Source: Candidatus Nealsonbacteria bacterium (GTDB lineage: Bacteria > Patescibacteriota > Minisyncoccia > Minisyncoccales > RBG-13-42-11). From it: a DNA stretch of 64,000 nt. This document shows, piece after piece, positions 1 to 63,027 of this stretch (the stretch's first letter is position 1; each line of letters begins with the position of its first letter). The notes under the pieces are model-generated. The model was given only the letters and a program-made list of their open reading frames with translations. It was not told the origin of the DNA and made no database searches. The stretch is from NCBI GenBank assembly GCA_026396115.1, contig JAPLXL010000004.1, forward strand, positions 19,805-83,804, read 5' to 3'. Made by a program: the position numbers and the translations under genes.

Positions 1-42
1 TTTGTTTTCTTCTCCACCCTCGCTTCCTTCGGAAGCTCGGTA
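1..42 (+). repeat. GCPE repeat, full form (5' part cut by window edge)
   Basis: TTCTCCACCCTC-GCTTCC-ttc-GGAAGC-TCGGTA; ends 2 nt before ATG at 44 (CTCGGTATATG). Confidence 0.8.
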
Positions 43-43
43 T

Positions 44-1735
44 ATGATTTCTAAAATATTAAAATCAATACTTCGGCATAAATTGTTAACGGGAATAATC
101 CTTTTACTGGTTATCGGGAGCATCTATTTTGGTTATCAAAAATTAGCCGGAGAGAAAAATGGGGTGCAATATGTTACGGCAGCTGTTGAAAAGGGTACGC
201 TTATTGTTTCTGTGTCGGGAAGCGGCCAGGTGTCGGTTTCTGACCAAATAGATATCAAGCCAAAGGTTTCAGGAGATGTAGTTTATGTCGGCGTAGAGAC
301 CAATCAAGAAGTAAGGCAGGGTACGCTTATTACCCAACTTGATACAAGAGACGCTGAAAAAGTGGTTCAGGATGCAGAAATTAATTTAGCAAGCGCCAGG
401 ACCGCGCTTGAAAACCTTAAAAATACCAAAAGAAAAGCAGAAGAATCGCTTACTGCAGCTTATAATGATGGATTAAATATCTTAACAAACACTTTTGAAG
501 ATTTGTCTCCGAGAATATCTGATCTGGAAAAAATGTTTACAGAGAGCAGTTATGATGGCGATGAAAATGACATTGATTATTATATACGTTTAGTGCGTGC
601 GTATAGCAAGGACTCCGAACAATTATTATCTTATTGGGATAACGGCACCGAAAAAAAATATCTTGCTGCAAAAAGCCAATTTGATAGGCTTAGATCAGAT
701 TACTTTATGCTTACTCTTAATTCTCCTCCCAAGCAAATTGAAACTATATTAAATCAAACCTATGATTTTACTCAAGTACTTTTGGATTTAGTTCGGCAGG
801 GTTATAACCTTGCGCAGAAATATCAGACAATTATTGAAACAGAAAATATAATTCCGCCCATTTCCGCAGAAACAACTAATAATCATGCCTCTCAATTGAG
901 TGAATTTACTTCTTTGCTTATTAGCCGCGTAAATTCTCTTTCGTCAGCCGAACAATCTCTTAAGGACAAAAAAGAGGCGGTGGAAAAAGCAGATTCTGAT
1001 ATTGAAGACCAAATTTATGTTATAGAACAGCGTGAAGATGCGCTATTTGATGCTGAAGAGAAATTAGCCCAACATTATATTTACGCCCCTTTTGGCGGCC
1101 TGATTGCCAAAGTAAATGTCAAAAAGGGAGATGCCGTTTCGTCCGGCACAACGCTGGCAACTTTTATTACTAAACAAAAAATAGCTGAGATTTCTCTTAA
1201 TGAGGTTGATGTGGCTAAAGTAAAAGTTGGCCAAAAAACAACCCTTACCTTCGACGCTTTTCCGGATGTAACTATTTCTGGTCGGGTTTTTGAGGTTGAC
1301 ACCTTGGGAACAGTAACTCAGGGGGTGGTAAGTTATGGAGTTAAAATTGCTTTTGATACTGAAGAGGAAAAAGTTAAGCCCGGTATGAGCGTGACAGCAG
1401 ATATTATTACTGATGCCAAACAGGATGTTTTAGTTTTGCCAAATAGCGCAATTAAGTCTCAAGGGGATTCTTATTATGTTGAATTAGTTGAAGTTCCAGA
1501 AGAAATGAAACAACAATTATTAGTTAATAAGACGGGGACAACTTTACCAAACCCGCCAAAATTGCAAGCCGTGGAAACAGGGCTTTCGAACGACCTTTCT
1601 ACTGAAATTGTCTCAGGTCTCAAAGAAGGTGATATCGTCGTTACTTCAACAATTAGTCCGAATAAGGTTCAAACTACTCAAACCCAGACTAATCAAAGTC
1701 GGGGAACTCAAGAATTTCAAATACCAGGATTATGA
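44..1735 (+). CDS. Efflux-system periplasmic adaptor (HlyD/MacA-type membrane fusion protein)
   Basis: ORF 2..1735 trimmed to first ATG after the repeat; N-terminal TM helix, long coiled-coil middle, beta-rich C-terminus; followed by MacB-like ATPase and permease. Confidence 0.8.
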   Translation: MISKILKSILRHKLLTGIILLLVIGSIYFGYQKLAGEKNGVQYVTAAVEKGTLIVSVSGSGQVSVSDQIDIKPKVSGDVVYVGVETNQEVRQGTLITQLDTRDAEKVVQDAEINLASARTALENLKNTKRKAEESLTAAYNDGLNILTNTFEDLSPRISDLEKMFTESSYDGDENDIDYYIRLVRAYSKDSEQLLSYWDNGTEKKYLAAKSQFDRLRSDYFMLTLNSPPKQIETILNQTYDFTQVLLDLVRQGYNLAQKYQTIIETENIIPPISAETTNNHASQLSEFTSLLISRVNSLSSAEQSLKDKKEAVEKADSDIEDQIYVIEQREDALFDAEEKLAQHYIYAPFGGLIAKVNVKKGDAVSSGTTLATFITKQKIAEISLNEVDVAKVKVGQKTTLTFDAFPDVTISGRVFEVDTLGTVTQGVVSYGVKIAFDTEEEKVKPGMSVTADIITDAKQDVLVLPNSAIKSQGDSYYVELVEVPEEMKQQLLVNKTGTTLPNPPKLQAVETGLSNDLSTEIVSGLKEGDIVVTSTISPNKVQTTQTQTNQSRGTQEFQIPGL

Positions 1736-2442
1736 TAGAAGCTAAGAACATTACCAAAGTTTATAGGTCGGGCGATGTTGAAACCAAAGTGTTAAAAGGC
1801 ATTTCTTTTTCTATTAAAGAAGGTGAATTTGTGGCAATTATAGGACCTTCCGGTTCAGGCAAATCAACTTTAATGCATATTTTAGGTTGCTTAGATGTTC
1901 CAACCAGCGGTCAATATTTTTTTGAAGGAAAAGACGTTTCTCAGCTTTCTGACGATGAATTGGCCGATATCCGTAAAGAGAAAATTGGCTTTGTTTTTCA
2001 GTCTTTTAACCTTTTACCCAGGACTACGGTTTTACGAAACGTGGTGTTGCCTTTAGCTTATGCTAATATCCCAAAAAGCGAACGAGAAGAAATTGCTAAG
2101 AGAGCTTTATTAAGTGCCGGTTTGGATGAAAAAACATTTTATCATCTTTCTAATCAGCTTTCGGGAGGGGAGATGCAGAGAGTGGCTATTGCCAGAGCTT
2201 TGGTGAACAATCCAACTATTATCTTGGCTGATGAACCAACCGGAAATCTTGATAGTAAAACCGGTGAAATTGTGCTTGAGACCTTCAAAAACTTAAACAA
2301 GCAGGGTCGAACAGTTATTTTGATTACTCACGAAAAATATATTGCTGAAAAAGCTGAACGAACAATTTTCCTCAAAGATGGAGAGATTATCGAGGACGTC
2401 GTCAATCATCGTTCTAAAACGGTTCAACAAATTAAAGAATAA
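1732..2442 (+). CDS. ABC transporter ATP-binding protein (MacB/LolD type)
   Basis: Walker [10 protein letters not shown], signature LSGGEMQR, Walker [12 protein letters not shown]; 4-nt overlap with adaptor gene. Confidence 0.92.
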
Positions 2443-2443
2443 A

Positions 2444-3664
2444 ATGCTTATTACTGACTTATTTGAAGAAACATATTTTGCTATTTCTGCCAATAAAACC
2501 AGGTCGGGCCTGACTATTTTGGGCATTGTCATTGGCATTGGTTCGGTTATCGCAATGATTTCAATTGGCCAGGGGTCAACCGCCTCAATTGAAACAAGTA
2601 TTCAATCAATGGGCTCAAATTTAATTACAGTGAGACCAGGATCTCAGAGAAGTTTTTCTCCGGTTTCAAGCGGAAGAGGCAGTGCTCAAACTCTGACCAT
2701 TGAAGATGCGGAAGCCATAGCCAAAGAGGTTTCATTTGTTCAGGCGGTAGCTCCGGAACTTTCCCAACGTTATCAGATTGTTGCTAAGGGGAAAAATACC
2801 AACACCCAGATTGTCGGCACAACCGCTTCATACCTTAGCGTTAAAAATATCGAAATGGACCAGAGTTCGTTTATTTCTGAACAAAACGTTATTTCGCAGT
2901 CAAAAGTGGCAATATTGGGCGCGACCACGCGCGATGATTTATTCGGTGAAGGAACAAATCCCATAGGACAGACGATAAGAATTAACGGAATAAACTTTAA
3001 AGTCATTGGTGTAACTAAATCTAAAGGCGGCACTGGTTTTGGCAGCCAAGACGATATGATATTCATTCCCATAAGTACCTGCCAGAAAATTTTAGCCGGA
3101 GCTGATTATGTTTCAACAATTAACGTCCAGGCCAACAGCCCACAAGTTATGACTCAGGTTCAGACCGATATCACCACTCTTTTAATGAGATTGCACAATA
3201 TTTCAGACCCTCAACTGGCTGATTTCAGCGTCTTAAGCCAGGAAGATATTCTTGCGTCTGTTTCTTCAATAACCGAAACAATGACTATTTTATTGGCATC
3301 AATTGCCGGAATCTCTCTGGTTGTGGGCGGTATTGGCATTATGAATATGATGATGACTACTGTCACCGAAAGAACCCGAGAAATCGGTCTTCGCAAAGCT
3401 ATTGGCGCCAAAAGATTGGACATAAATTTGCAGTTTTTAGCTGAAGCAGTAATGCTGACTTTTCTTGGCGGAATTGTCGGAATAATTCTGGGGATCGGAC
3501 TGGCTTATGGAATAACACTTTTTACCAGTACGGCGACTAAAATTTCTTTATTTTCAATTATTTTAGCTTTTAGCGTATCTGCTGTCATCGGGATTGGTTT
3601 TGGTTACTGGCCTGCTCAAAAAGCAGCCAAACTTAACCCCATTGAAGCGTTGCGGTATGAATAG
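2444..3664 (+). CDS. ABC transporter permease, MacB/FtsX family
   Basis: ATG at 2444 directly after the ATPase stop (in frame with ORF 2342..3664); N-terminal TM, large extracytoplasmic domain, C-terminal FtsX-type TM bundle. Confidence 0.85.
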   Translation: MLITDLFEETYFAISANKTRSGLTILGIVIGIGSVIAMISIGQGSTASIETSIQSMGSNLITVRPGSQRSFSPVSSGRGSAQTLTIEDAEAIAKEVSFVQAVAPELSQRYQIVAKGKNTNTQIVGTTASYLSVKNIEMDQSSFISEQNVISQSKVAILGATTRDDLFGEGTNPIGQTIRINGINFKVIGVTKSKGGTGFGSQDDMIFIPISTCQKILAGADYVSTINVQANSPQVMTQVQTDITTLLMRLHNISDPQLADFSVLSQEDILASVSSITETMTILLASIAGISLVVGGIGIMNMMMTTVTERTREIGLRKAIGAKRLDINLQFLAEAVMLTFLGGIVGIILGIGLAYGITLFTSTATKISLFSIILAFSVSAVIGIGFGYWPAQKAAKLNPIEALRYE

Positions 3665-3666
3665 TA

Positions 3667-3723
3667 GGCGAAGAGGAATTCGTCCTCTTCTTCACCTTCG
3701 TTTTTATAAATAAAAACTCGGTA
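3667..3723 (+). repeat. GCPE repeat, full two-hairpin form
   Basis: GGCGAAGAGGAattcgTCCTCTTCTTCACCTTC-GTTTTTataaatAAAAAC-TCGGTA; ends 1 nt before ATG 3725 (CTCGGTATATG). Confidence 0.9.
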
Positions 3724-3724
3724 T

Positions 3725-4141
3725 ATGAAAAAAATAATTCCAATTATTGTCATACTCATTTTAGTGGTCGGAGGTGGCGCATTCTATGGTGGAATGAAAT
3801 ATGGGCAGAGTAAAGGTCCTTCCCGTCAAGCCCCCCAAAATTTATCTCCAGAACAACGCCAACAATTTTTGCAAGGAGGAACTCAAAGAGCTGGAGCAGG
3901 TTTTCTTTCTGGTGAAGTTATTGCCAAAGATGAGCAGAGTTTAACCCTTAAAATGCCAGATGGTGGCTCAAAGATTGTCTTTTTTTCAGATTCTACCCAA
4001 ATATCCAAAACAACCGAGGGATCAATAGGTGATATTGAAGTTGGTAAGCAAATTATGGTTTCGGGTAGTCAAAACTCTGACGGGAGCTATACTGCAAAAA
4101 CAATTCAGCTTTCTCCTCGTGTTATCCAACCCGAGAAATAG
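3725..4141 (+). CDS. Hypothetical membrane-anchored/secreted protein
   Basis: 138-aa ORF with N-terminal hydrophobic helix (IIPIIVILILVVGGGAFYGG), Gln/Gly-rich linker, beta-rich C-terminal domain. Confidence 0.6.
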   Translation: MKKIIPIIVILILVVGGGAFYGGMKYGQSKGPSRQAPQNLSPEQRQQFLQGGTQRAGAGFLSGEVIAKDEQSLTLKMPDGGSKIVFFSDSTQISKTTEGSIGDIEVGKQIMVSGSQNSDGSYTAKTIQLSPRVIQPEK

Positions 4142-6750: not shown

Positions 6751-7411
6751 TTTTTGATTGAAAAGATTGTTTCGGAAAGTTCGTTAAAAATTGAATAATT
6801 AAAACCGTAGAAGTAGAAAATATATATACCCATATTTTGTGGTTATTAATTACTAGCTCAGTGCAAGCCGGATTAATTTTTGGCTTGACTGGGCAATCAA
6901 AAAATTTTACAGGCGGATGGTGGATGCCTTGGAAGATTGAGGCGATGAAGGACGTGGCGTGTCTGCGATAAGCCTCGGGGAGGTGGTTAGCAACCTTTGA
7001 TCCGGGGATTTCCGAATGGGGAAACCCAACGCGAATCAACAACGCGTTACCGCGCTGCGAAACAGCGTGGAGCAAACCTGGGGAAGTGAAACATCTCAGT
7101 ACCCAGAGGAAAAGAAAACGAAGTTTAATTCCCTTAGTAGCGGCGAGCGAAAAGGGAAGAGCCCAAACCTGCCAGTGCTTTGCACTCGTAGGGGTTGTAA
7201 GTTGGATATGTCCCAGAGCAATCTGGGCAGAGCTTTATAAAAATGTGATTTGGCTAGACGAAGGTTCCTGGAAAGGACAGCCAAAGAGAGTAATAGCCTC
7301 GTAGTCGAAAGTCATCACATGCTCTGAGTATCTATACTTGAGTATCCCGAGAAATGATAACCTTGGGAGAAACAAGCCGGACTAACCGGCTAAGGCTAAA
7401 TACTCAATCTT

Positions 7412-7452
<41 letters not shown>

Positions 7453-9576
7453 GGGAGGTGATCCCGGTGAAATAGAACCTGAAACCATCTCGCTTACAAA
7501 GAGTCAGAGCCGAGCACATAATTTATTATGTGCTTCGGTGATGGCGTGCTTTTTGTAGAACGAGCCAACGAGTCCTCGCTCTTTCTTTGTCTAAGCGGTT
7601 TTGCCGCGAAGGCAAAGGGAAACCAAGTCTTAATAGGGCGTCTCTCGGTTTTTCCGAGAAGAGAAAGAGCAAGGGACCCGAAGCCAAGCGAGCTTGCCAT
7701 GGCCAGGGTGAATTCCGCAGAAATGCGGGAGGAGGCCCGAACCCGTGAGCCGTTCAACACTCTGGGATGAGCTGTGGTAAGAAGTGAAAAGCTAATCGAG
7801 CTTGGTAATAGCTGGTTCTCCCCGAAATAGCTTTAGGGCTAGCCCGAGCAATTACCTACAGGGGTAGAGCACTGAATGGAATATCGTGGGTTTTACCTAG
7901 GTAATCCAATCAAACTCCGAATACTGTAGGTCAGAGCATATATTTTATGTGCTTTGATATATGCTCGGAGTTAGACTGTGGGGGCTAAGCTCCATGGTCA
8001 AAAGGGAAACAGCCCAGATCTTCATCTAAGGTCCCTAAACTAAGCTAAGTGTTTTGAAGGAAGTGAGACACCTGAGATAGTTAGGAGGTTAGCTTAGAAG
8101 CAGCTATCCTTTAAAAAGTGCGTAATAGCTTACTAACTAAGGAGTTTCGCGCCGAAGATTTATCGGGGCTAAGCTTAGTACCGAAGATAAGGGAACGTAC
8201 AATTTGCTTTGCAAATGTTACGTTCGGTAGGGGAGCGTTCTCTTCGCAGCGAAGTTAAACCGTGAGGTTTGATGGAGCGGAGAGAAGTGAGAATGTTGGC
8301 ATGAGTAACCGCAATGCCGCTGAGATAGCGGCACACCGAAAACCCAAGGTTTCCTTGGCAATGACAATCAGCCAAGGGTTAGGCGGTCCTTAGTCCAAAA
8401 CCGAAAGGTCAGGATGATGGACAGCCGGTTAATATTCCGGCCCCCGAGCACATAATCCAAAGAGGGGACGAAGTCTAGTAGTTTGGGCGAGTTATCGGAT
8501 TCTCGTTGTTAACCTAAGAATTTTCAAGGGTTAGCAAAATGCTTTGATTCTTCAAGGCAAATTCAAATAAGCAGGCTTCCCAGAAAAGCCTCAAAGGAAT
8601 TTAATTATGTGCTTGGTCCGTACCGCAAAACCGACACAGGTGGGTTGGTGTAAATGCACCAAGGTGAACGGGTGAAACCTCGTTAAGGAACTCGGCAAAA
8701 AAGTGGTCGTAAGTTCGCAATAAGACTTCTGAGCATATAAGTTTTATGTGCTCGGCGCAGCGAAAGTACCCCTGGCGACTGTTTACCAAAAACACAGGTC
8801 CCTGCTTAATTCGTAAGAAGATGTATAGGGGCTGAGGCCTGACCAGTGCTGGAACGTTAACGTCGCCGGTCTCATCGCAAGGTGAGGCTGAGTGACCGAA
8901 GCGCCAGTGAACGTCGGCGGTAACTATAACCGTCTTAAAGTACCGTAATCCCTTGCCAGGTAAGTTCTGGCCCGCAGGAAAGGTTTAACGACTGGGGGAC
9001 TGTCTCAACGAGGAGCCCGGTGAAAACGCAATACCGGTAAAGATGCCGGTTACCTACGGCTAGACGGAAAGACCCCGGGAGCTTTACTGTAGTTAAATAT
9101 TGAATTTTGGTTTTGAATGCGTAGCGTAGCGGGTAGGCTTTGAAGTGTCGTTTTCGGACGGCATGGAGCCGCCAATGAAACACCCGTCTTTTAAAATCTT
9201 TATTCTAACTCTGCTAAAAGCGGAAAACAGTGTTTAATGGGCAGTTTAAGTGGGGCGCTTGCCTCCTAAAAGGTAACGGAGGCGTTTATTAAGGTCGGCT
9301 AGGCACGGATGGAAATCGTGCTCGTCGTGTAAAGGCACAAGCCGGCTTGACTGCAAGAGGGATAACTCACGCAGGCACGAAAGTGGAACTTAGTGAACCG
9401 ACGGATTTTTGTAGAAAATCCGAAGATCATCAACTAAAAGCTACCCCGGGGATAACAGGCTAGTAGGGCCCGCGAGTTCATATCAACGGCCCTGTTCGGC
9501 ACCTTAACATATCGGGGTGCTATAGTAGTAATGCTATATCTCGCTTAAGGCGGGACGAAAAAACTGACTTATAACG

Positions 9577-9774
9577 GTGAAATCCATATGTTATAATATA
9601 TATATGGACAATACCGTGGGAAGTTTAACTCAATTTCAAAAATCGATAATCATAGGATCAATTTTAGGAGATGGGTATTTAAGAATTATTTCTGGCAGAA
9701 ATAATGCCTTTTTAGAAATAAATATTAATCCGGTGATTTTATCGATTTGGTTTATGGATGACGGAAGCAAATAA
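9577..9774 (+). pseudogene. Decayed LAGLIDADG homing endonuclease ORF inside intron 1
   Basis: 65-aa ORF keeps IIGSILGDGYL and WFMDDGSK motifs, but the sequence between them and the C-terminal half are missing. Confidence 0.7.
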
Positions 9775-9869
9775 TGAAATATAAATTGGGTTATAACCCC
9801 GTAGAGACTTGCTCAAAATGAGCAGATGAAAATAAAATTTTCATAATACGTCAGCCCCACCAAGGTTAG

Positions 9870-9924
9870 CTCGAAGAAGCTACGCTTCTTCTCGACCTTC
9901 GCTTTTGCTTCGCAAAAGCTCGGT
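9870..9924 (+). repeat. GCPE repeat, full form, inside intron 1 (P8-equivalent hairpin)
   Basis: CTCGAAGAAGCtacGCTTCTTCTCGACCTTC-GCTTTTGCttcGCAAAAGC-TCGGT between AATACGTC and GATATAGTCC; intron 2 has a plain hairpin here. Confidence 0.85.
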
Positions 9925-10068
9925 GGGTGAAGATATAGTCCGATCCTCCTTGTAAAAGGAGAAAAATACCGACAGCGATGTCGGCTCATCTCATCCTGGG
10001 GGTGAAGCAGCTCCCAAGGGTTTGGCTGTTCGCCAATTAAAGAGGTACGTGAGCTGGGTTCAAACCGT

Positions 10069-10388
10069 GGTTCCAATTTGGAACAGGCGGCCTCATTGGG
10101 CAATCAATGAGTGCAAAAACCCCGCACCAAAACTTTTAGTTTGATACGGGGTAAACCGACTAATATCGGTGAAGTCCATAGAAATTCTTTCAACCTGTAT
10201 TTCTATGGATAATACCGAGGCAAGTCCAATTTAAAAAGTTGGATGAGCCGTAGAGACTTTTCGCCGCAGAGGCGAAAGATGGAAGTTAACCTTCCATAAT
10301 ACGTCGGTCCCCTAAACCCGGTTGCTAAAAGCAACTTAGGGTCGGGTGGTGATATAGTCCATACATTTAGTAATAAGTGAAGTATATG
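10069..10388 (+). mobile_element. Group I intron 2 in 23S (approx. E. coli 2593, I-CreI-type site), ORF-less
   Basis: Splits GGGTTCAAACCGT|CGTAAGACAGGTTGG; 5' exon ends in T, insert ends in G; shares CCGTAGAGACTT..AATACGTC..GATATAGTCC core with intron 1. Confidence 0.85.
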
Positions 10389-10706
10389 CGTAAGACAGGT
10401 TGGTCCCTATCTACCGTAGGCGTTGAGTCTTGAGGGGGGTTCTCACTAGTACGAGAGGATCGTGAGGAACTGACCTCTGGTCTACCAGCTGTTCCACCAG
10501 GAGCATTGCTGGGTAGCTAAGTCGGGAACTGATAAGTGCTGAAAGCATCTAAGCGCGAAGCAGGCCCCAAGATTAGGACTCTTAGATTCCCCGCAGATTA
10601 CGGGGTTGATAGGCTGCAGGTGTAAGTGCAGTAATGCATTCAGCCGAGCAGTACTAATAAATCATTGATTTTTTGTTGCCCAATTAAACTGGGCTAGTAA
10701 TTAATG

Positions 10707-10762
10707 ACCGAGCCCCGCAATAGCGTGGCGAGGGGGAAGAAGAAAACTTTGTTTTCTTTGCC
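10707..10762 (-). repeat. GCPE repeat, variant full form, in 23S-5S spacer
   Basis: ACCGAG-CCCCGcaataCGTGG-CGAGGGGGAAGAAGAAAACtttGTTTTCTTTGCC. Confidence 0.7.
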
Positions 10763-10785
10763 CTTCACAAAAGCAAAAGGCGCTG

Positions 10786-10896
10786 AGGTGGTGGCTATGC
10801 TGACGTTGTCCCACCCGATCCCATTTCGAACTCGGAAGTGAAATACGTCAAGGCCGATGATAGTCCTTCGGGGCGAAAGTAGGTAGCTGCCACCCC
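10786..10896 (+). rRNA. rrf: 5S rRNA
   Basis: GGTGGTGGCTATGC..CCCACCCGATCCCATTTCGAACTCGGAAGTGAAA..GTAGGTAGCTGCCACC; flanked by GGCGCTGAGG/CCCCAGCGCC stem; ends approximate. Confidence 0.88.
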
Positions 10897-10911
10897 AGCG
10901 CCTTTTGAGGT

Positions 10912-10974
10912 CAAAGAGGGCAGAGCCCTCTTTTCACACCCTTTACCCCTCACCAATGGTGAGGGGCTTGGGTA
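10912..10974 (+). repeat. GCPE-like variant just after 5S (may double as terminator)
   Basis: AAGAGGGcagaGCCCTCTTTTCACACCCTTTA-CCCCTCACCaaTGGTGAGGGG-CTTGGGTA; SL1 followed by T-run. Confidence 0.6.
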
Positions 10975-10996
10975 TTTAAAAAATCACCCGTCTTTT

Positions 10997-11093
10997 ACCG
11001 AGCTTCCGAAGGAAGCGAAGGTGAAGAAGAGTGCGAAGAAAAGCGCTTCTTCTTTCGTCTCGTCTTTGACTCGACGGACGAAGTCCTCTTCGA
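10997..11093 (-). repeat. GCPE repeat, long form with ~50-bp inner module
   Basis: ACCGAGCTTCCgaaGGAAGCGAAGGTGAAGAAGAGTGCGAAGAAAAGcgcTTCTTCTTTCGTCTCGTCTTTGACTCGACGGACGAAGTCCTCTTCGAC; enclosed by 12-bp inverted repeat AAAAAATCACCC (10978-10989) / GGGTGATTTTTT (11097-11108). Confidence 0.88.
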
Positions 11094-11118
11094 CTTGGGT
11101 GATTTTTTAGATTACAAT

Positions 11119-11304
11119 TTATTCAATATCTTTACCCCAATCTTCCTCTTCTTCTTCTTCCTCCTCCTCCTCCTCTTCTTCTTCTTCTTCTTTCTCTTCC
11201 TCTTTTTCTTCATCTTCATCTGCTTCTAAGTCATCTTCAAGTCCGAAAAGCTCTTCTTCGATTTCTTGACAAACCGGGGAGACAAAAAGTTTATCTTTCG
11301 TCAT
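11119..11304 (-). CDS. Small acidic poly-Glu protein (uncertain)
   Basis: 61-aa ORF, ATG start; more than half Glu/Asp, encoded by a long GAA/GAG tract (about 11141-11225). Confidence 0.3.
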   Translation of the reverse strand: MTKDKLFVSPVCQEIEEELFGLEDDLEADEDEEKEEEKEEEEEEEEEEEEEEEEDWGKDIE

Positions 11305-11338
11305 AAGAATTTTAAAAGATAATTAAACTTTTTATAAT

Positions 11339-11409
11339 ACCGAGGCGACCTTGGCGAAAAGGGTTTTATCCTCTTCTTTACTTTCGTCCTGCTGCGTGCG
11401 GGACTCGGT
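11339..11409 (+). repeat. GCPE repeat, degenerate/composite
   Basis: Starts ACCGAG and ends CTCGGT; TTATCCTCTTCTTTACTTTC-GTCCtgctgcgtgcGGGAC-TCGGT. Confidence 0.6.
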
Positions 11410-11467
11410 TTTTAATTTCTAAGATTAGTATATTTATGTAAAAAACCTTGTCAAGTCCTTTGAAATG

Positions 11468-11521
11468 GGCGAAGAGGATAAATCCTCTTCTTTACCTTCG
11501 CTTCCTTGATGGAAGCTCGGT
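11468..11521 (+). repeat. GCPE repeat, full form
   Basis: GGGCGAAGAGGAtaaaTCCTCTTCTTTACCTTC-GCTTCCttgatGGAAGC-TCGGT. Confidence 0.9.
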
Positions 11522-11540
11522 TTGTGATAAAATTAACCCA

Positions 11541-11583
11541 GTCGAAGAGATAAATCTCTTCTTAACCCTTCATCGTCATTCGG
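11541..11583 (+). repeat. GCPE repeat, CATYGTCATTCGG-tail variant
   Basis: GTCGAAGAGATaaATCTCTTCTTAACCCTTCATCGTCATTCGG; 2 nt before mreC ATG 11586. Confidence 0.8.
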
Positions 11584-11585
11584 AT

Positions 11586-12404
11586 ATGATAATACGATTG
11601 AATACAAAATCATATCAAAATATAAAAAAAATTATTGCTGTTTTAGTTCTGCTGGCGATTGTTATCATTGTCTCAAATTTTACGGGTTTTTCAAAAAATA
11701 TTAAAAATTCTTTCTTTTTAATATCTTCGCCTATTCAAAAATCATTCTGGCAGGCAGGGAAAAATGTTTCAGTGTATTTCGCCGGAATTCTGGAAGTAAG
11801 GATTCTTAAAAAAGAATTAAACAATCTTCATCTTAAAAACCAAGAACTCCTTAGTCAGATTGTTGCGATAATCGAATTAAAAAAAGAAAATGAAGTTCTG
11901 AGAGAGGTTTTGGGTCTTGGTTTGGAAAAAGAATTTCAATTAATGCTTGCCCAGATAATAAGCAAAGATATTTCTCAGGATTCCATTTTAATTAATAAAG
12001 GAAAAAAAGACGGGGTTTTAGAGGGTTGGCCCGTAATTACCGGACAAAAAGTCCTTTTGGGAAAAATCGGTCAAATTTATGACAGGTTTTCAGAGGTTAT
12101 ATTGATTTCAAATAAGAAAAGTTCTTTTGACGCGAAAATTAGCGATACCGAAATTTATGGAATAGTAAAGGGAGAGGGAAAGTTTAAGATTTATTTTGAT
12201 TTAATTCCTAAAGATAAAGAAATTTTTGAAGGGAAAGATGTAATTATTACCTCTGCTTTGGGCGGCGTCTATCCTCAAGGGCTTTTGGTCGGAGAAATTA
12301 AAACGATAAGCAAATCGGATACAGATCCCTTTCAGAGGGCAGAAATAACACCTGTTTTTAATATTAAAGATTTGGATTATTTATTTATTATTACGGAATG
12401 GTAA
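11586..12404 (+). CDS. mreC: Rod shape-determining protein MreC
   Basis: ORF 11448..12404 trimmed to ATG 11586 (upstream part is read-through of two repeats); TM helix, coiled coil, C-terminal beta domain; followed by mreD and PBP2. Confidence 0.8.
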   Translation: MIIRLNTKSYQNIKKIIAVLVLLAIVIIVSNFTGFSKNIKNSFFLISSPIQKSFWQAGKNVSVYFAGILEVRILKKELNNLHLKNQELLSQIVAIIELKKENEVLREVLGLGLEKEFQLMLAQIISKDISQDSILINKGKKDGVLEGWPVITGQKVLLGKIGQIYDRFSEVILISNKKSSFDAKISDTEIYGIVKGEGKFKIYFDLIPKDKEIFEGKDVIITSALGGVYPQGLLVGEIKTISKSDTDPFQRAEITPVFNIKDLDYLFIITEW

Positions 12405-14855: not shown

Positions 14856-14880
14856 AAAAAATAGGATAAACTTAAATATC

Positions 14881-16347: not shown

Positions 16348-16395
16348 GAACTTTGTTCTCATCTTCCACCTCGCTTTAATAAATTAAAACTCGGT
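16339..16395 (+). repeat. GCPE repeat, full form
   Basis: GGGCGATGAGAACtttGTTCTCATCTTCCACCTC-GCTTTAAtaaaTTAAAAC-TCGGTA; contains the lysS stop codon; 8 nt before serS ATG. Confidence 0.85.
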
Positions 16396-16403
16396 AAATA
16401 AAT

Positions 16404-40278: not shown

Positions 40279-40280
40279 AT

Positions 40281-40337: not shown

Positions 40338-40338
40338 T

Positions 40339-43279: not shown

Positions 43280-43284
43280 TTCAA

Positions 43285-44062: not shown

Positions 44063-44118
44063 TATCTCTTCGACCGCCGAACCGCAGTGAGGCTGAAGAA
44101 GAGATTTATCTCTTCGAC
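44063..44118 (-). repeat. GCPE repeat, variant
   Basis: TATCTCTTCGACCGCCGAACCGCAGTGAGGCTGAAGAAGAGATttATCTCTTCGAC; its SL1 arm supplies the rpsI ..SKR-stop codons. Confidence 0.7.
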
Positions 44119-44983: not shown

Positions 44984-45083
44984 ACCAAGCCCCGCGCAGC
45001 GGGGCGAATTCGAAGAAGATTCCTTCTTCTCCACCTCAGTTGAAGCTTCGGTAGGTGAAGATGAGAACGAATTTCTCATCGCC
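44984..45083 (-). repeat. GCPE triple composite unit
   Basis: ACCAAGCCCCGCgcaGCGGGGCGAATTCGAAGAAGAttcCTTCTTC-TCCACCTCAGTTGAAGCTTCGGTAG-GTGAAGATGAGAACgaattTCTCATCGCC; abuts rplM ATG. Confidence 0.88.
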
Positions 45084-45086
45084 TTG

Positions 45087-47744: not shown

Positions 47745-47861
47745 TTATCCTTGTCTTTGTTTATGTTTTGGGTTTTTTTTGCAAATAACATAAATTCGTC
47801 CCCTTCTGCGGACGATTTTACAATTTTTACAAATTTTCTTTATCGATGACCTAACTTTCAT
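47745..47861 (-). CDS. rpmJ: 50S ribosomal protein L36
   Basis: Not in ORF track (38 aa); hand translation [38 protein letters not shown]. Confidence 0.92.
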
Positions 47862-47863
47862 AT

Positions 47864-47920
47864 ACCGAGCTTTCGCGCAGCGAAAGCGAAGGTGAAGAAG
47901 AAAACGAAGTTTTCTTCGCC
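47864..47920 (-). repeat. GCPE repeat, full form (infA-rpmJ spacer)
   Basis: ACCGAGCTTTCGCgcaGCGAAAGCGAAGGTGAAGAAGAAAACgaaGTTTTCTTCGCC; CTCGGTATATG junction with rpmJ; extra half-site ATCGAGCTTT at 47922-47931. Confidence 0.93.
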
Positions 47921-47941
47921 TATCGAGCTTTATTTCTTTGA

Positions 47942-48161: not shown

Positions 48162-48359
48162 TACCAAACTTCCATTACCGAGCTTCCGAAGGAAGTGAAG
48201 GTGAGAAAGAGTGCGAAGAAAGTAAGATTTCTTCTTCCCCCTTCGCTGTCGCTCGGGAGTGCGAAGAAAAGTTTTTCTTCTTTCGTTTCGTCTTTGACTC
48301 GACGAATGAAATTCTCTTTCGACTATGGAAGTGAAGTCGAAGAAGATTCCTTCTTCGAC
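48162..48359 (-). repeat. GCPE long form carrying a nested short-form copy, plus flanking partial copies
   Basis: ACCGAGCTTCCgaaGGAAGTGAAGGTGAGAAAG[AGTGCGAAGAAA]gtaagatTTCTTCTTCCCCCTTCGCTGTCGCTCGGG[AGTGCGAAGAAA]AGTTTTTCTTCTTTCGTTTCGTCTTTGACTCGACG..; bracketed 12-mers at 48210-48221 and 48258-48269. Confidence 0.85.
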
Positions 48360-48403
48360 CAGACAATTTCTTAGTTTATCAAAATTTATTAAATTAGTCA
48401 ATC

Positions 48404-48460
48404 ACCGAACCCCGCCCACAGCGGGGCGAAGGTTAAGAAGAGAACAAAGTTCTCTTCGCC
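48404..48460 (-). repeat. GCPE repeat, full form
   Basis: ACCGAACCCCGCccacaGCGGGGCGAAGGTTAAGAAGAGAACaaaGTTCTCTTCGCC. Confidence 0.88.
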
Positions 48461-48461
48461 T

Positions 48462-52181: not shown

Positions 52182-52934
52182 TCAGTTTAAATCAATATCT
52201 TTTACTATTTTAATAAACTCCTTCGCGTTTAAAGATATACCACCGATTAAAAGTCCTTGGAAACCCCCTTTTTTGATGTAATCTCCGGCATTTTGAAAAT
52301 TAACGCTGCCTCCATAAAGGATGGGAATTTTTTTATTTAATACTTCCTTTTTAATTAATATTCTCATTTTATTGGCTTTTTCGACACTACAAGGTTTACC
52401 CGTGCCAACAGCAAAAATGGGCTCATAGGCGATTATCAAATTCGATAATTCTTTTTTGACAAGACCGCTTAAATCTTTTTTAAGGCGAAGAGGGCTTCGG
52501 CCTCTTCTTCCACCTCGTTTCCTTAAGAAGCTCGGTATTTGAGAAATATTATCAATACATAAAATTACTTTTAACCCCGTCTTCAAAGCGGCTTTTAATT
52601 TTTTGTTTATCATTTCATCGGTCTCTTTCTGATATTTTCTTCTTTCGGAATGGCCGATAATTACATATTTTATGCCCGTATTTTTTAACATTAAAGGTGA
52701 AATCTCGCCGGTAAAAGCGCCCTTTTCTTCCCAAAAACAACTTTGCCCTCCAAAGCTTACAACGGAAGATGGCTCCTGACTGACAAGCAAAGAAAGATAA
52801 ACAAATGGCGGACAAATTACCACCTCTGAATTTTTTACATTTTTTATCCCTTTTCTTATTGAATCAAAAAGCTTCTCAGCTTCCCGTAAAGTTATTGGAT
52901 TACATTTCCAATTAGCGACAATTAATAGTTTCAT
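52182..52934 (-). CDS. tpiA: Triosephosphate isomerase with in-frame repeat insertion
   Basis: ANWKCN, IIGHSERR, AYEPIFAVGTG, YGGSV motifs. Confidence 0.93.
   Translation of the reverse strand: MKLLIVANWKCNPITLREAEKLFDSIRKGIKNVKNSEVVICPPFVYLSLLVSQEPSSVVSFGGQSCFWEEKGAFTGEISPLMLKNTGIKYVIIGHSERRKYQKETDEMINKKLKAALKTGLKVILCIDNISQIPSFLRKRGGRRGRSPLRLKKDLSGLVKKELSNLIIAYEPIFAVGTGKPCSVEKANKMRILIKKEVLNKKIPILYGGSVNFQNAGDYIKKGGFQGLLIGGISLNAKEFIKIVKDIDLN
52484..52537 (+). repeat. GCPE repeat, full form, in frame (antisense reading) in tpiA (54 bp)
   Basis: GGCGAAGAGGGCttcGGCCTCTTCTTCCACCTC-GTTTCCTTaaGAAGC-TCGGTA, read on the gene strand as PSFLRKRGGRRGRSPLRL. Confidence 0.9.
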
Positions 52935-54064: not shown

Positions 54065-54082
54065 TGAAATAAATCTTTGATT

Positions 54083-54131
54083 ATCGAGCTTCCGAAGGAA
54101 GCGAAGATGAAGAAGAGATTTATCTCTTCAA
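54083..54131 (-). repeat. GCPE repeat, full form (GT2-galT spacer)
   Basis: ATCGAGCTTCCgaaGGAAGCGAAGATGAAGAAGAGATttATCTCTTCAA; supplies the last codons and stop of the GT2 gene. Confidence 0.9.
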
Positions 54132-54860
54132 CTCATTTCGGTCTTTGATTAAATTTAATCTTATCTTAATTAAATCAATAGCCATTTTAATTATGCTTTT
54201 TAAATTAACCTTGCTTTCGGGATCATTTTTCCAATAAACCGGAATTTCTTTAATTTTATATCCTAACGATTTCCCAATAATTAAAACCTCGGCGTCAAAA
54301 GCAAAATGATTAATTTTGCATCTGGGAAAAATCTCTTCTGTCGCTTTTTTGGTAAAGCATTTAAATCCGCATTGAGTGTCTTGAATTCCCCAAAGACCCA
54401 AAATTATCTTTCTGTATAATTTAAATCCTTTTCCTAAAATTTTATCTCTTATCCATGGCTGAGGGGGATCCAAAACCGCTCCCTCAGCATCTCTTGAACC
54501 GATTACAACATCATAATTTTTTTTAAACTCCGGCCACATTTTTTCAATCTGATCAATTGAAGTGGAGTTATCGGCATCAACAAAAATCCGGAAATCTCCT
54601 TTGGCCATCAACATGCCTTTTTTTACGGCAAAACCCTTACCTCGACCGCCCAATCCCTCAATTAGTTTTAATTCTTTAATCTGACCTGCCAAATTTCTAG
54701 CGATTTGGGCGGTTTTATCCGTTGAACCATTGTCCACAACTAAAATTTCATAATCGTAAGATTGCCGAGACAAATAATCATTGATTGATTGCAAAGTTCC
54801 TGTAAGCCTTTTTTCCTCATTGTAAGTTGGAATAATCACCGAAAGATAAATTTCTGACAT
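54120..54860 (-). CDS. Family 2 glycosyltransferase (polyprenyl-phosphate glycosyltransferase-like)
   Basis: LSVIIPTYNE, VVDNGSTD, FVDADNS (DxD) motifs. Confidence 0.85.
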   Translation of the reverse strand: MSEIYLSVIIPTYNEEKRLTGTLQSINDYLSRQSYDYEILVVDNGSTDKTAQIARNLAGQIKELKLIEGLGGRGKGFAVKKGMLMAKGDFRIFVDADNSTSIDQIEKMWPEFKKNYDVVIGSRDAEGAVLDPPQPWIRDKILGKGFKLYRKIILGLWGIQDTQCGFKCFTKKATEEIFPRCKINHFAFDAEVLIIGKSLGYKIKEIPVYWKNDPESKVNLKSIIKMAIDLIKIRLNLIKDRNELKR

Positions 54861-58661: not shown

Positions 58662-59138
58662 TTAGGATTTTGGATTTTGGATTTTAAGGCTCTTTAGAGC
58701 TTTTATGGTGGCTTGAGCATTATTTAATTTGTTTCCGGTTCTACCCAAAATTTTAGAAGAAATATTTCTTATTCCCGCCAAAGTACAAATAACTCTAACT
58801 ACTCCGCCTGCCACCAGACCTCTTCCTTTTCTTTGAGGTTTTAAAATGACTTCAGCTGCCCCGAATTTAGCAAAAACTTCATGGGGAATTGTATCTTCCT
58901 TTATAGGAACTACAATTAAATTTTTCTTAGCCATTCTTGTGGCTTTTTCTACTGCCTGAGCCACATCTAAACCTTTTGATACCCCGACTCCCACTTTTCC
59001 TTGTTTGTTTCCAATAATAACTACTGCCCGAAACCTAAGACGCTTTCCACCACCCGTAACTCGCGTCACTCTCGCCAAATCCAAAAGCTTAGATTCAAAC
59101 TCATCTTTTATTTTTTCTTTAAAAAATTCTCTTCTCAT
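58662..59138 (-). CDS. rpsE: 30S ribosomal protein S5
   Basis: VTRVTGGGKRLRFRAVVIIGN, GRGLVAGGVVR. Confidence 0.95.
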   Translation of the reverse strand: MRREFFKEKIKDEFESKLLDLARVTRVTGGGKRLRFRAVVIIGNKQGKVGVGVSKGLDVAQAVEKATRMAKKNLIVVPIKEDTIPHEVFAKFGAAEVILKPQRKGRGLVAGGVVRVICTLAGIRNISSKILGRTGNKLNNAQATIKALKSLKIQNPKS

Positions 59139-59240
59139 ATCGAGCTTTCGCGTAGCGAAAGCGAAGTCGAAGAAGATTTCTTCTTCTCCACCTCAGCTGA
59201 AGCTTCGGTAGATGAAGAAGAGGACGACGTCCTCTTCGCC
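59139..59240 (-). repeat. GCPE triple composite unit (rplR-rpsE spacer)
   Basis: ATCGAGCTTTCGCgtaGCGAAAGCGAAGTCGAAGAAGAtttCTTCTTC-TCCACCTCAGCTGAAGCTTCGGTAG-ATGAAGAAGAGGAcgacgTCCTCTTCGCC; abuts rpsE ATG. Confidence 0.92.
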
Positions 59241-59255
59241 TTTAATAATTTAAAA

Positions 59256-62270: not shown

Positions 62271-62507
62271 TTATCCTTGAGGCGAAGAGGACTTCGTCCT
62301 CTTCTTCACCTTCGCTCCGCTGCCGTGGAGCTCGGTTAATAAAGTTAATATTTGGGCGATTTCTTTTTTAACCTTGCGGATTTCTCTGACATTTTTTACT
62401 TTTCCTGTTATCAAATCAAATCTAAGCTGTCTTAATTTTTCTCGATCATCTCTTAAGATCTTTTGAATTTCTTCTTTAGATTTTCTGCGCAATTCGTCAA
62501 TTTTCAT
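62271..62507 (-). CDS. rpmC: 50S ribosomal protein L29 with repeat-derived C-terminal extension
   Basis: L29 helical hairpin (ELRRKSKEEI..LRQLRFDL..); last about 19 aa (LHGSGAKVKKRTKSSSPQG) encoded by repeat 62281-62336. Confidence 0.9.
   Translation of the reverse strand: MKIDELRRKSKEEIQKILRDDREKLRQLRFDLITGKVKNVREIRKVKKEIAQILTLLTELHGSGAKVKKRTKSSSPQG
62281..62336 (+). repeat. GCPE repeat, full form, forming the rpmC 3' end
   Basis: GGCGAAGAGGActtcgTCCTCTTCTTCACCTTC-GCTCCgctgccgtGGAGC-TCGGT. Confidence 0.9.
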
Positions 62508-62509
62508 AA

Positions 62510-62563
62510 ACCGAGTCCCGTTTACGGGACGAAGGTGAAGAAGAGAACGAAGTCCTCTTCGCC
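62510..62563 (-). repeat. GCPE repeat, full form (rplP-rpmC spacer)
   Basis: ACCGAGTCCCGtttaCGGGACGAAGGTGAAGAAGAGAACGAAGTCCTCTTCGCC; CTCGGTTTATG junction with rpmC. Confidence 0.9.
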
Positions 62564-62575
62564 TTATAACTTATT

Positions 62576-62980
62576 TTATCTTTTAACAAATTTTGTCTTT
62601 ATTGGCAATTTATCTGCTGCTTTTTTAAAAGCCTCCTCGGCCATTTCTTTTTTTATTCCATCTAATTCAAAAATAATTCTGCCGGGCTTTATTGGAAAAA
62701 CATAATGGTCTACACTTCCCTTGCCACCTCCCATTGGAACTTCTGTCCCTTTTTTTGTTATCGGTTTGTCCGGAAAAACTCTAATCCAAAGTTTTCCTCC
62801 TTTTTTAAGATACCTGAGAATAGCACGACGGGCTGATTCGATTTGTCTTGCCGAAATCCAAAGGGTGCTTAAAGACATTAAACCAAAAGAGCCAAAAGCC
62901 AGTGCGACTCCCCGAGACGCTTTACCTTTTGACCTTCCTTTTTGCCATTTTCGGTGTTTAACTTTTTTAGGATATAACAT
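62576..62980 (-). CDS. rplP: 50S ribosomal protein L16
   Basis: ATG 62980 ([11 protein letters not shown]..) preferred over upstream TTG. Confidence 0.95.
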
Positions 62981-62983
62981 AAT

Positions 62984-63027
62984 CAAAGAAATAAATCTCT
63001 TCTTCAGCCTTCATTGCGATTCGGCTA
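62984..63027 (+). repeat. GCPE repeat, CATTGCGATTCGG-tail variant (rpsC-rplP spacer)
   Basis: CAAAGAAATaaATCTCTTCTTCAGCCTTCATTGCGATTCGGCTA; contains the rpsC stop. Confidence 0.75.

Follow-up and report, generated by a model that had tools for sequence, protein, structure and literature searches.

The stretch of DNA analyzed here, 64,000 nucleotides of contig JAPLXL010000004.1 of a Candidatus Nealsonbacteria bacterium (assembly GCA_026396115.1) and hereafter called the window, holds a 23S-5S rRNA unit, genes for tRNA-Ala and tRNA-Lys, envelope and division genes, chaperones and aminoacyl-tRNA synthetases, followed on the minus strand, from about 44 to 64 kb, by ribosomal-protein and neighboring genes, which between 44 and 55 kb were identified via syntenic relatives. 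The S9 protein of the window is identical to one annotated in a Candidatus Nealsonbacteria metagenome-assembled genome, and an exact look-up of its CTP synthase returned no record. Gene direction and GC skew both flip near 37.7 kb. Dispersed between and within these genes are copies of a short palindromic repeat made of two hairpins in series, which are the subject of this work and which had been proposed as a dense family in an earlier note made from the sequence alone.

A dense family of two-hairpin repeats

Exact-motif counts, a repeat finder and a covariance model (CM) agree that the family is real. The exact hairpin GAAGAGGA-loop-TCCTCTTC occurs nine times in the window and never in dinucleotide shuffles, the CTTC..CTCGGTA pattern occurs nine times against 0.12 expected, and the repeat finder returned more than 12 overlapping direct-repeat families bearing the consensus and sub-forms described in the earlier note. 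The covariance model was derived from an alignment of 18 full window copies, for which RNAalifold gave two hairpins with compensatory changes in 9 of the 15 pairs; an unfiltered run on the window produced about 58 matches at E<1e-4 and, once overlaps and the reverse-strand echoes of palindromes were dropped, 55 non-overlapping copies were left, from 6-44 to 62981-63028. These copies span 3,046 bp, or 4.76% of the window, which bears out the earlier estimates of about 56 copies and about 5%; the accompanying total of about 3.4 kb was somewhat higher than that of the model, where some TGAAT-arm copies are uncounted. Because some of these TGAAT-arm hairpins (for example those at 38050-38118) lie outside the model and outside the count of 55, the real copy number is somewhat higher.

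Short-read assemblies break at repeats, and a contig assembled independently in Logan (SRR20698646) in fact ends within the copy at 14477-14526, as a repeat-induced break would. The same contig, however, is 100% identical to positions 14496-17417 of the window, the copy at 16339-16398 included, and orthologous copies were found in three further assemblies and occur in ENA, JGI and NCBI assemblies, one of them a closed genome. An assembly artefact is therefore excluded, and we give an artefact of assembly or binning in general next to no chance. It is probable, on the other side of the same coin, that the repeat copies fragment assemblies of the Nealsonbacteria lineage.

No Rfam family matches the element. 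At gathering score the whole window returned rRNA and tRNA only, and at E<=1 over 9400-11700 and 33000-37800 no family fitted the consensus; the chance overlaps seen at that level in the repeat cluster after the 5S rRNA were ilvH, at 29.1 bits (cutoff 55.1), and TLS-PK3, at 21.3 (cutoff 80). The sub-threshold ilvH match, at 10922-10988 with E=0.003, falls on repeat hairpins and is probably due to chance. Searches of the literature available here on candidate phyla radiation (CPR) bacteria, Nealsonbacteria and Parcubacteria likewise turned up no description of such repeats, in agreement with the earlier statement that the family has no name. The family is best read as a new and unusually dense one of selfish palindromes, similar to repetitive extragenic palindromes (REPs) and Rickettsia palindromic elements (RPEs), in Candidatus Nealsonbacteria and relatives.

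Paired stems and the symmetry of the unit

The full unit measures about 54-61 nt and is accompanied by a short form of 48 nt and a further variant of 45 nt. It begins with an unpaired head (RGGC or AGTC), followed by hairpin 1, TTC and an interrupted second hairpin. Hairpin 1 has an invariant base, GAAGA/TCTTC, a free distal part of 3-4 bp and a free loop of 3-5 nt, and the second hairpin has a variable inner stem enclosed by the pairing of the "linker" ACC with the "tail" GGT; the 48-nt and 45-nt variants retain hairpin 1 and the ACC..GGT frame. In the 155 copies whose hairpin 1 is perfect, the head was AGGC in 62, AGTC in 23, GGGC in 20, TGGC in 15 and TGTC in 3, while CGTC was absent from the heads listed for these copies and occurred in one of the 48 window copies in the model alignment. 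The ends of the element, GGCGAAGA... and ...CTCGGTA, are not complementary, and it thus has no terminal inverted repeats. Most copies, coding or noncoding, are open in 4-5 of the 6 frames, as compared to about two estimated for random sequence of the same composition.

The stem variants listed in the earlier note are present and complementary, and the covariation on which its argument rested survives both shuffled and slid controls. In 150 copies from other genomes, 97.8% of the stem cells are Watson-Crick or wobble pairs, as opposed to 78.6% after shuffling and 50-62% after sliding; both sides have changed in 429 cells, and a single position can show as many as six pair types. Fitting to the covariance model favors structure in this alignment, but the margin is very large. 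The ACC/GGT helix is absent from the model, and it is 88% paired, with 18 double changes where 2.9 would be expected. As for the nature of the fold, G-T and A-C mismatches are equally common in the stems (31 and 30, respectively, in other genomes; in the window, 12 and 15), and in every genome pair the columns of orthologous elements are less conserved than third codon positions (0.84/0.92, 0.67/0.79 and 0.86/0.96), a deficit that the replacement of copies by non-orthologous ones at shared sites may have enlarged in part. Because G-T mismatches are no commoner than A-C, coding copies lie in both orientations and the copies change faster than third positions, the stems do not reflect a strand-specific RNA fold. 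The earlier proposal that a fold is maintained therefore stands for complementarity and falls for an RNA structure: the palindromic symmetry is a property of the DNA element.

In-frame insertions in conserved genes

Twelve of the 55 copies lie in frame inside conserved open reading frames (ORFs), namely those for ribosomal protein S9, alanyl-tRNA synthetase (AlaRS), triosephosphate isomerase (TIM), GrpE, PBP2, a Mur ligase, a DegT-type aminotransferase, FtsQ and an FAD-dependent oxidoreductase, and a further four form a C-terminus or stop (two in the Cas4-like nuclease, one in the probable L29 ORF, and one at the rpsI stop); the earlier note had missed both groups. Pfam domains flank the copies on both sides in the PBP2 transpeptidase, DegT, GrpE, S9, AlaRS and TIM, the DegT match being broken into three stretches and the GrpE and S9 matches running about 16 and about 19 residues above profile length, respectively. 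In the Mur ligase, FtsQ and the FAD oxidoreductase the copy sits past the matched domains, within the same unbroken ORF. The encoded peptides include VVEEDLSSSSPFAAARVV in PBP2, ESEEDKSSSSPFAVARKG in the Mur ligase, QVEESKLSSSPSAFAREI in GrpE, LGKEDKSSFSPSFPFRGNSVF in AlaRS, QIPSFLRKRGGRRGRSPLRL in TIM, where the copy is reversed, and a 21-residue segment in S9, for which GGSSKRTSSSSLPSLSLR is an example of a sequence spanning the junction. Both orientations are represented among the coding copies.

S9 was the one protein whose insert was modeled. In the AlphaFold2 model of the window S9, obtained with a 23-sequence alignment, the core has a predicted local distance difference test score (pLDDT) of about 85-94 and the element stretch, residues 53-71, has a pLDDT below 50 and is placed between two beta strands, at a site that in E. 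coli S9 is the turn of the N-terminal beta hairpin. We infer that the coding copies would be translated as disordered surface loops of 15-20 residues. Removal of these copies at the RNA level, as a mini-intervening sequence, is unlikely because all inserts are multiples of three in length and the frames are open.

Turnover between close relatives

About 12.5 kb of the window could be aligned with syntenic regions of three relatives (L066, L067 and L068). By eye, most of the indels of at least 21 nt in this four-genome alignment are element sequence; the rpsM-rpsK spacer holds a cluster of segments, found in L066 and L067 only, that are unlike the element. About 25 element sites show the presence patterns 1000, 0010, 010., 1011, 110. 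and 1111. Although third codon positions agree to 95.6% between L067 and L068, these two differ by six copies in 6.4 kb, and the copies seen only in L067, one of them inside rpoA, would most simply be gains made after its split from L068. Several S9 homologues, in a set 78-87% identical, have an empty site (FPQKEKSF-LINGK), and in others it is filled by the same insert as in the window, by a short form in the opposite orientation or by two inserts. Similarly, the first site in DegT homologues is empty, occupied by a 16-residue short form, or occupied by this form with a full form nested in it (the window and P0122), and the second site holds different forms in different relatives. Two more distant DegT homologues (P0127 and P0129) have other inserted peptides, PTSSLGRVRKNFNSFDF and PSTRAKLGAGLVPHRNKVSGAG, at the same or new sites, which may stem from further, unrelated repeat families.

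The clean inserts measure 57 nt in AlaRS, 54 in TIM, 48 at 42601, 45 in the rpoA of L067 and 93 for a double insert in the L067 TIM, all of them multiples of three. Neither a target-site duplication nor terminal inverted repeats could be seen at the clean empty/filled junctions, and the six of these read by hand show no common target tetranucleotide and an ambiguity or microhomology of 0-3 nt, barely above chance. We rejected the ATG that often follows CTCGGTAT as a part of the element; since empty sites already carry it, this start codon belongs to the host gene.

The sub-forms distinguished in the earlier note are present, although the long form and the triple composite are nested insertions and not forms of their own. 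The "100-bp triple composite" is, in fact, a 45-nt module inserted in the linker of an older copy; at the C-terminal end of the Cas4-like nuclease and also upstream of rplM, relatives have the older copy alone, and the rpoA insert of L067 is the same 45-nt module. Head-to-tail tandems form beside the tail of an existing copy.

Occurrence in other genomes

A search of GTDB genomes with a strict 27-nt pattern, which matches only 6 of the 55 window copies, returned 65 stretches in about 25 species-level genomes, and the covariance model confirmed 165 copies in these loci. The hosts include several Nealsonbacteria, including the closed genome CP179888.1 of 639,534 bp, Parcubacteria CG1_02_39_15 and CG2_30_36_38, a Minisyncoccales metagenome-assembled genome (MAG), Candidatus Paceibacter normanii, and many MAGs labeled "uncultured Candidatus Saccharibacteria". 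This last label is unreliable, because at least one such locus (L033) is 80-88% identical to the window at the DNA level. A locus labeled as Aenigmatarchaeota (L047) contains one full copy, but its translated sequence matches a CPR contig (L004) and it is probably mis-binned. The same pattern had no match among IMG/VR viral contigs, thus giving no sign of a phage vector. Copy density varies, from 5 copies in 20 kb in L066 and about 25 in L067 to about one per 1.2 kb in the window.

Strand preference

In the window 40 copies are oriented with local transcription and 15 against it (p=0.001). When the window and the fetched loci were pooled and sorted into simple ORF-based classes, copies internal to coding sequences were unbiased (18 same, 26 opposite), while intergenic and start-proximal copies were co-oriented with transcription in 65 cases and opposed in 31 (p=7e-4), and the two classes differ (Fisher p=0.003). 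Because the coding copies are unbiased, the bias is not a simple insertion-strand effect. On the same ground we set aside a lagging-strand insertion bias as its cause, but gene direction and GC skew co-vary, and in the window replication direction is inseparable from gene direction. The intergenic bias points to selection at the transcript level, as a cost or a benefit, in very short spacers, where the tail often lies 0-8 nt before the next start codon. By inference only, the forward linker, TTCACCTTC or TCCACCTC, may be said to resemble an anti-Shine-Dalgarno sequence, and a reversed copy would expose the Shine-Dalgarno-like GAAGGTGAA or GAGGTGGA in the mRNA.

Positions of the copies and neighboring genes

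Table 1. Copies of the repeat family in the window. Strands and scores (bits) are those of the covariance model (CM) where given; aa, amino-acid positions; L066 to L068, the relatives aligned with the window.
Feature	Position	Strand	Score, evidence or remark
Edge-cut copy; tail CTCGGTAT adjoins ATG (44) of HlyD-like gene	6-44	+	CM 27.3; Pfam
Full copy forming the spacer from MacB/FtsX permease gene to next gene	3666-3725	+	CM 81.2; DNA fold z=-3.5
Full copy within group I intron 1 (9495-9962) of 23S	9869-9927	+	CM 49.9; Intron_gpI; 23S alignment
23S-5S spacer copy	10704-10763	-	CM 48.4
Degenerate copy right after 5S rRNA	10909-10976	+	CM 19.3
5S-mreC repeat cluster copy	10994-11054	-	CM 46.3
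5S-mreC repeat cluster copy	11352-11412	+	CM 40.2
Repeat cluster copy upstream of mreC	11467-11524	+	CM 60.5
CATTCGG-tail form directly upstream of probable mreC start	11540-11587	+	CM 25; direct-repeat family
mreD-like/PBP2 copy, intergenic or N-terminal extension	12809-12872	+	CM 44.8
Short form in frame, PBP2 transpeptidase domain, aa 581-598, VVEEDLSSSSPFAAARVV	14477-14526	+	CM 34.5; Pfam; translation
Full copy, spacer between class II aminoacyl-tRNA synthetase gene and serS	16339-16398	+	CM 70; also in Logan assembly
Short form in frame near Mur ligase C-terminus, aa 463-480	19755-19804	+	CM; Pfam; translation
Short form in frame, DegT-type aminotransferase, split by nested copy	20321-20424	+	CM half-hits 20321-20364, 20376-20424
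Full form nested in DegT short form, in frame	20346-20402	-	CM 69; homologue alignment
Short form in frame in DegT, reversed; mostly empty in homologues, other form in P0126	20935-20984	-	CM; alignment
Short form in frame, FtsQ aa 132-149	22728-22777	+	CM; Pfam; translation
Full form in frame, FtsQ aa 221-240	22993-23052	-	CM 63.9; translation
Tandem after ftsQ: full copy (23273-23326), then CATTGTCATTCGG-tail copy	23273-23371	+	CM 59.3, 10.4
Short form in frame, GrpE aa 131-148	28390-28439	+	CM; Pfam; translation
grpE-dnaK spacer copy, against transcription	28552-28609	-	CM 64.7
TGAAT-arm sub-form, dnaK-dnaJ spacer	30507-30566	+	CM 15.8
Copy between tRNA-Lys and S41 peptidase gene	31840-31887	-	CM 44.9
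Head-to-tail tandem of full copies before rplI (33069-33122, 33123-33182)	33069-33182	+	CM 60.4, 69
Head-to-tail tandem abutting ATG 35863 (35752-35806, 35807-35863)	35752-35863	+	CM 55.4, 75.2
In-frame copy, FAD-dependent oxidoreductase aa 54-70	36024-36071	-	CM; Pfam; translation
Full copy upstream of uppS	36860-36919	+	CM 66.3; Pfam
Two copies after uppS at strand switch (37629-37688, 37705-37762)	37629-37762	+	CM 79.5, 53.5
Two tandem TGAAT-arm hairpins CAATGAATATAAAATTCATTTCGCC, related sub-form	38050-38118		Read in sequence; unscored by model
Copy downstream of gltX	40141-40198	-	CM 57.5
Full copy directly after gltX	40278-40338	-	CM 73.4
Short form at junction of MurG C-domain ORF (-) and (+) ORF; in 4/4 compared genomes	42490-42539	+	CM; coding status ambiguous
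Short form, 48-nt insertion unique to this genome; coding status ambiguous	42601-42650	+	Empty in L066-L068
Composite forming C-terminus of Cas4-like nuclease; 45-nt module nested in linker of older copy	43284-43384	-	CM; relatives without module
Copy whose start supplies last codons and stop of rpsI (W-S-K-R-stop)	44073-44119	-	Absent in L066
Full copy in frame, ribosomal protein S9 aa 56-76	44410-44470	-	CM 76.1; empty in close homologues; AlphaFold loop pLDDT<50
Composite upstream of rplM; 45-nt module in linker of full copy	44981-45084	-	CM; relatives compared
Best-scoring full copy, fills rpsK-rpsD spacer; empty in L066	46830-46889	-	CM 86.1
Full copy, infA/rpmJ; empty in L066, doubled in L067	47861-47921	-	CM 80.5
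Four-copy cluster upstream of infA	48174-48248, 48259-48306, 48315-48360, 48401-48461	-, +, -, -	CM; variable among relatives
Full copy in frame, alanyl-tRNA synthetase aa 507-527; 57-nt insertion unique to this genome	50049-50108	-	CM; Pfam
Full copy in frame, reverse to gene, triosephosphate isomerase aa 132-151; 54 nt	52483-52539	+	Shared with L066, absent from L067
galT-tpiA spacer copy, unique to this genome	52959-53007	+	CM; relatives compared
Spacer copy upstream of galT	54080-54133	-	CM 55.2
Two-copy composite (59136-59190, 59193-59241) between two ribosomal-protein cluster ORFs	59136-59241	-	CM; direct-repeat family
Full copy, reverse to gene, forming C-terminus of ORF upstream of that read as rpsQ, by position probably rpmC (L29)	62280-62339	+	CM 76.5; translation
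Full copy abutting start codon of same probable rpmC ORF	62507-62564	-	CM 67.1
Weak CATTGCGATTCGG-tail copy	62981-63028	+	CM 13.1; direct-repeat family

The identities of S17 (rpsQ) and L29 (rpmC) were assigned by eye and position and not by Pfam. The stretch from the 23S/5S genes to mreC (10700-11600) consists almost wholly of repeats, with at least 7 copies in 900 nt in both orientations. The 23S rRNA gene itself (6898-10677) exceeds the model by about 855 nt and is interrupted near the peptidyl-transferase region by two group I introns that hold no ORF, at 9495-9962 and 10051-10380, which score 43.6 and 43.2 bits with Intron_gpI (E about 3e-9), just under the gathering score of 50. A 172-aa ORF for a free-standing LAGLIDADG endonuclease adjoins a 315-aa Xer-like tyrosine recombinase (38107-39581, minus strand) at the switch near 37.7 kb, and repeats flank the pair at 37629-37762 (+) and 40141-40338 (-). 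The recombinase scores 213 bits to XerC, below the equivalog cutoff. This locus may be either a replication terminus equipped with Xer or a mobile segment, and the endonuclease might serve the ORF-less rRNA introns.

Further along, an ORF with the MurG C-terminal domain (Glyco_tran_28_C, aa 66-228) and no N-terminal domain is encoded on the minus strand within 41932-43279, and the opposite-strand ORF at 42482-43279 covers no more than the C-terminal 265 aa of a gene whose called length in relatives is 445-446 aa. The junction of these ORFs holds two repeat copies, and here either the calls made in relatives run through stop-poor repeats or a rearrangement took place. The gene for the Cas4-like PD-(D/E)XK nuclease (43285-44055, minus strand) is directly downstream of rpsI in 4/4 genomes, and its C-terminus is element-encoded in all four; the window holds no CRISPR array. 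The short rpmJ gene (L36; 47741-47860, minus strand) begins right after the copy at 47861-47921 and, because it falls below the ORF length threshold, the ORF list overstates spacer sizes in the ribosomal cluster.

Discussion

The copies very probably constitute a family of non-autonomous selfish mobile DNA palindromes in the Candidatus Nealsonbacteria genome. Their insertion targets comprise spacers, a group I intron, protein-coding genes and their own copies, with gain and loss at orthologous sites. The stop-poor sequence would let insertions with lengths in multiples of three survive in genes, as disordered surface loops, and selection would purge out-of-frame or disruptive insertions and keep the stop-free ones in tolerant loops. 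In spacers, selection would favor one orientation; where these are very short a copy would become essentially the whole spacer, and orientation would matter only there. As to the means of movement, a DDE transposase is disfavored because there are no terminal inverted repeats and no target duplications and the ends are hairpins. Movement would fit either a hairpin-recognizing enzyme acting in trans, of the HUH/Y1 type or a tyrosine recombinase, or else copy-choice or recombination at short homologies.

Several observations, nonetheless, weigh against considering these copies as mobile selfish DNA. A Pfam/NCBIfam scan of about 40 window ORFs, which covered the part up to about 54.1 kb, found no transposase or dedicated mobilizer; the only recombination or nuclease genes among the scanned ORFs are the Xer-like tyrosine recombinase, the LAGLIDADG endonuclease and the Cas4-like nuclease, and the others are housekeeping genes. 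A phmmer search of the stop-to-stop ORFs in 587 kb of element-bearing DNA, consisting of 8-kb locus samples, also returned none, a weak negative as the IS608 TnpA and E. coli RAYT queries were approximate. Moreover, the translation of coding copies is read from intact frames alone, the same protein sites in S9 and DegT hold different forms across relatives, as hotspots or conversion would produce, one spacer of L067 acquired three copies as a block, in a manner more reminiscent of recombination than of single insertions, and the intergenic orientation bias shows that some copies are not neutral.

Spread without any dedicated enzyme, in which short homologies (for example GAAGA-rich or CTCGG-like targets) would seed replication template switching or conversion between copies, has a limited chance of being correct. 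It would agree with the failure to see a transposase among the scanned ORFs, with the block gain in L067 and with the different forms found at the same protein sites, as well as with the native end of rpsI, TGGTCGAAGAGATAA, which equals the head of the element and flanks the insert on both sides, with the 42601 insert standing beside a pre-existing CTCGGT, and with nested inserts sitting in the GAAGA or linker of host copies. The microhomology at the six clean events, however, is close to that expected by chance, the targets in AlaRS, TIM and RpoA are unlike the element, and such a process is not known to yield dozens of dispersed new sites. A derivation from REP/RAYT or IS200/IS605 systems, where single-stranded hairpins would be moved by a Y1 HUH transposase encoded elsewhere, is unlikely, even though the subterminal hairpins at both ends, the conserved stem base and flanking motifs, which would suit a structure-reading protein, and the head-to-tail tandems beside existing tails speak in its favor. 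No Y1/RAYT-like ORF emerged from the sampled loci with the approximate queries used, the six clean junctions share no target tetranucleotide, the coding copies lack the strand bias that a lagging-strand preference would predict, and the head differs from the GTAG/CGTC of described REPs (PMC3733652). Decidedly unlikely, in our opinion, is a combined scenario in which the copies would spread without a transposase, through hairpin-stalled replication and copy-choice or conversion, and would keep supplying episymbiotic CPR bacteria with new surface loops in their essential proteins (S9, RNA polymerase alpha, aminoacyl-tRNA synthetases, cell-wall enzymes), with intergenic copies co-opted as orientation-dependent transcript elements.

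The remaining explanations attribute the repeats to a function for the host. A structured cis-acting RNA motif, be it a stabilizer, a processing site, a terminator or a means of translational coupling, would make the element regulatory and not selfish, and would account for two stable, strongly covarying hairpins, for the co-orientation of intergenic copies with transcription, and for tails that so often precede a start codon. We regard it as quite improbable: pairing is not kept on one strand, as the parity of G-T and A-C mismatches indicates, coding sequences harbor both orientations, third codon positions evolve no faster than orthologous copies, the spacers of close relatives function without copies, and Rfam has no counterpart even at the most permissive threshold. 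Highly improbable is, lastly, a selected protein module, in which a peptide such as xEEDKSSSSPFAxAR would be the unit and the DNA likeness secondary. The short form inside genes is mostly read in a single frame, so that the peptides in PBP2, Mur ligase, FtsQ, GrpE and DegT are alike, but the palindrome by its very make-up encodes EEDKSSS whichever strand is read, the remaining coding copies vary in frame and lie in both orientations, the element DNA is also present in spacers, the intron and the rRNA spacers, inserts are missing from close orthologues, and the S9 insert is predicted to be disordered.

If the copies are indeed mobile selfish palindromes, protein-coding DNA of this kind, so far treated as a peculiarity of Rickettsia, has in Patescibacteria an unrelated family that does likewise, and thus a second, independent system for studying the movement of such elements and their tolerance by reduced genomes: the only closed genome found here for the lineage measures just 0.64 Mb (CP179888.1), and in the window the family makes up about one twentieth of the sequence and turns over fast between close relatives. 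The family explains part of the unusual insertions and length variation in S9, AlaRS, TIM, GrpE and cell-division proteins. It is also a hazard for annotation, as stop-poor repeats lengthen ORF calls, shift start codons and create spurious small ORFs, and for assembly, as the repeats break short-read assemblies. Insertion polymorphisms, in turn, could serve as fine-scale strain markers for Nealsonbacteria populations.

Relation to known elements

Classical MITEs (Correia, ERIC, RUP, BOX) are defined by terminal inverted repeats and target-site duplications (PMC10969869). The present family resembles them in being small, non-autonomous and dispersed, with occasional in-frame ORF fusions, but has neither of the two defining features. 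Palindrome-associated elements derived from IS200/IS605 have subterminal hairpins, no terminal inverted repeats and no target duplication, all of which are shared by our family; here, however, the hairpins are perfect and variable in sequence, no target tetranucleotide is fixed, coding copies show no strand bias, and the sampled loci gave no match to the approximate TnpA query. PARCELs, too, are coding sequences whose dyad symmetry lets both strands encode similar peptides, but they are 25-residue units in long tandem arrays in surface or unknown-function ORFs, whereas the copies described here are single dispersed insertions in housekeeping genes and spacers.

The likeness to REPs, BIMEs and REPINs lies in a short unpaired head, a stem of 8-9 bp, a loop of 3-5 nt, a short tail, and many copies that occur in clusters. 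Some REPs sit in genes and some of their families have no known transposase, and the CGTC-1 and CGTC-4 REPs correspond to RPE-6 and RPE-4 (PMC3733652). The differences are nevertheless several: the head is RGGC or AGTC (CGTC in at most 1% and TGTC in about 2%) and not a GTAG/CGTC tag, the first stem pair is G-C and not A-T, unlike hairpins are joined head-to-tail in place of head-to-head dimers of one 20-40 nt hairpin, a large share of the copies (16/55) lie in or end coding sequences whereas REPs are mostly extragenic, and the approximate RAYT query found no match in the loci searched.

The earlier suggestion that RPE/REP/BIME/MITE-like repeats are the closest concept holds, as does the guess that the host belongs to the Patescibacteria, and the RPEs are an apt comparison because twelve copies are in-frame insertions within conserved genes. 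RPEs are palindromic repeats of 100-150 bp that abound in spacers as well as in genes, where they are often in frame, and that have proliferated in particular lineages (PMC1779305, PMC10969869), and their families run from RPE-1 to RPE-10, as summarized from Ogata et al. 2000 and 2002 (PMC10969869, PMC1779305). Our family differs in its length of 45-61 nt (vs 100-150 bp; PMC1779305), in its host, Patescibacteria in place of Rickettsiales, in its two unlike short hairpins in series, in its frequent nesting and in its density. Common descent with RPEs is unlikely, the two being set apart here by host and size and not by sequence comparison, and on the features compared our family belongs to none of the RPE or REP families. 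Yet both are palindromic repeats that populate the spacers and the coding regions of a reduced genome, in frame and compatible with the protein fold, both have proliferated in a lineage-specific manner with no cognate transposase known for either, and the S9 insert, like RPE-encoded segments, lies outside the structural core.

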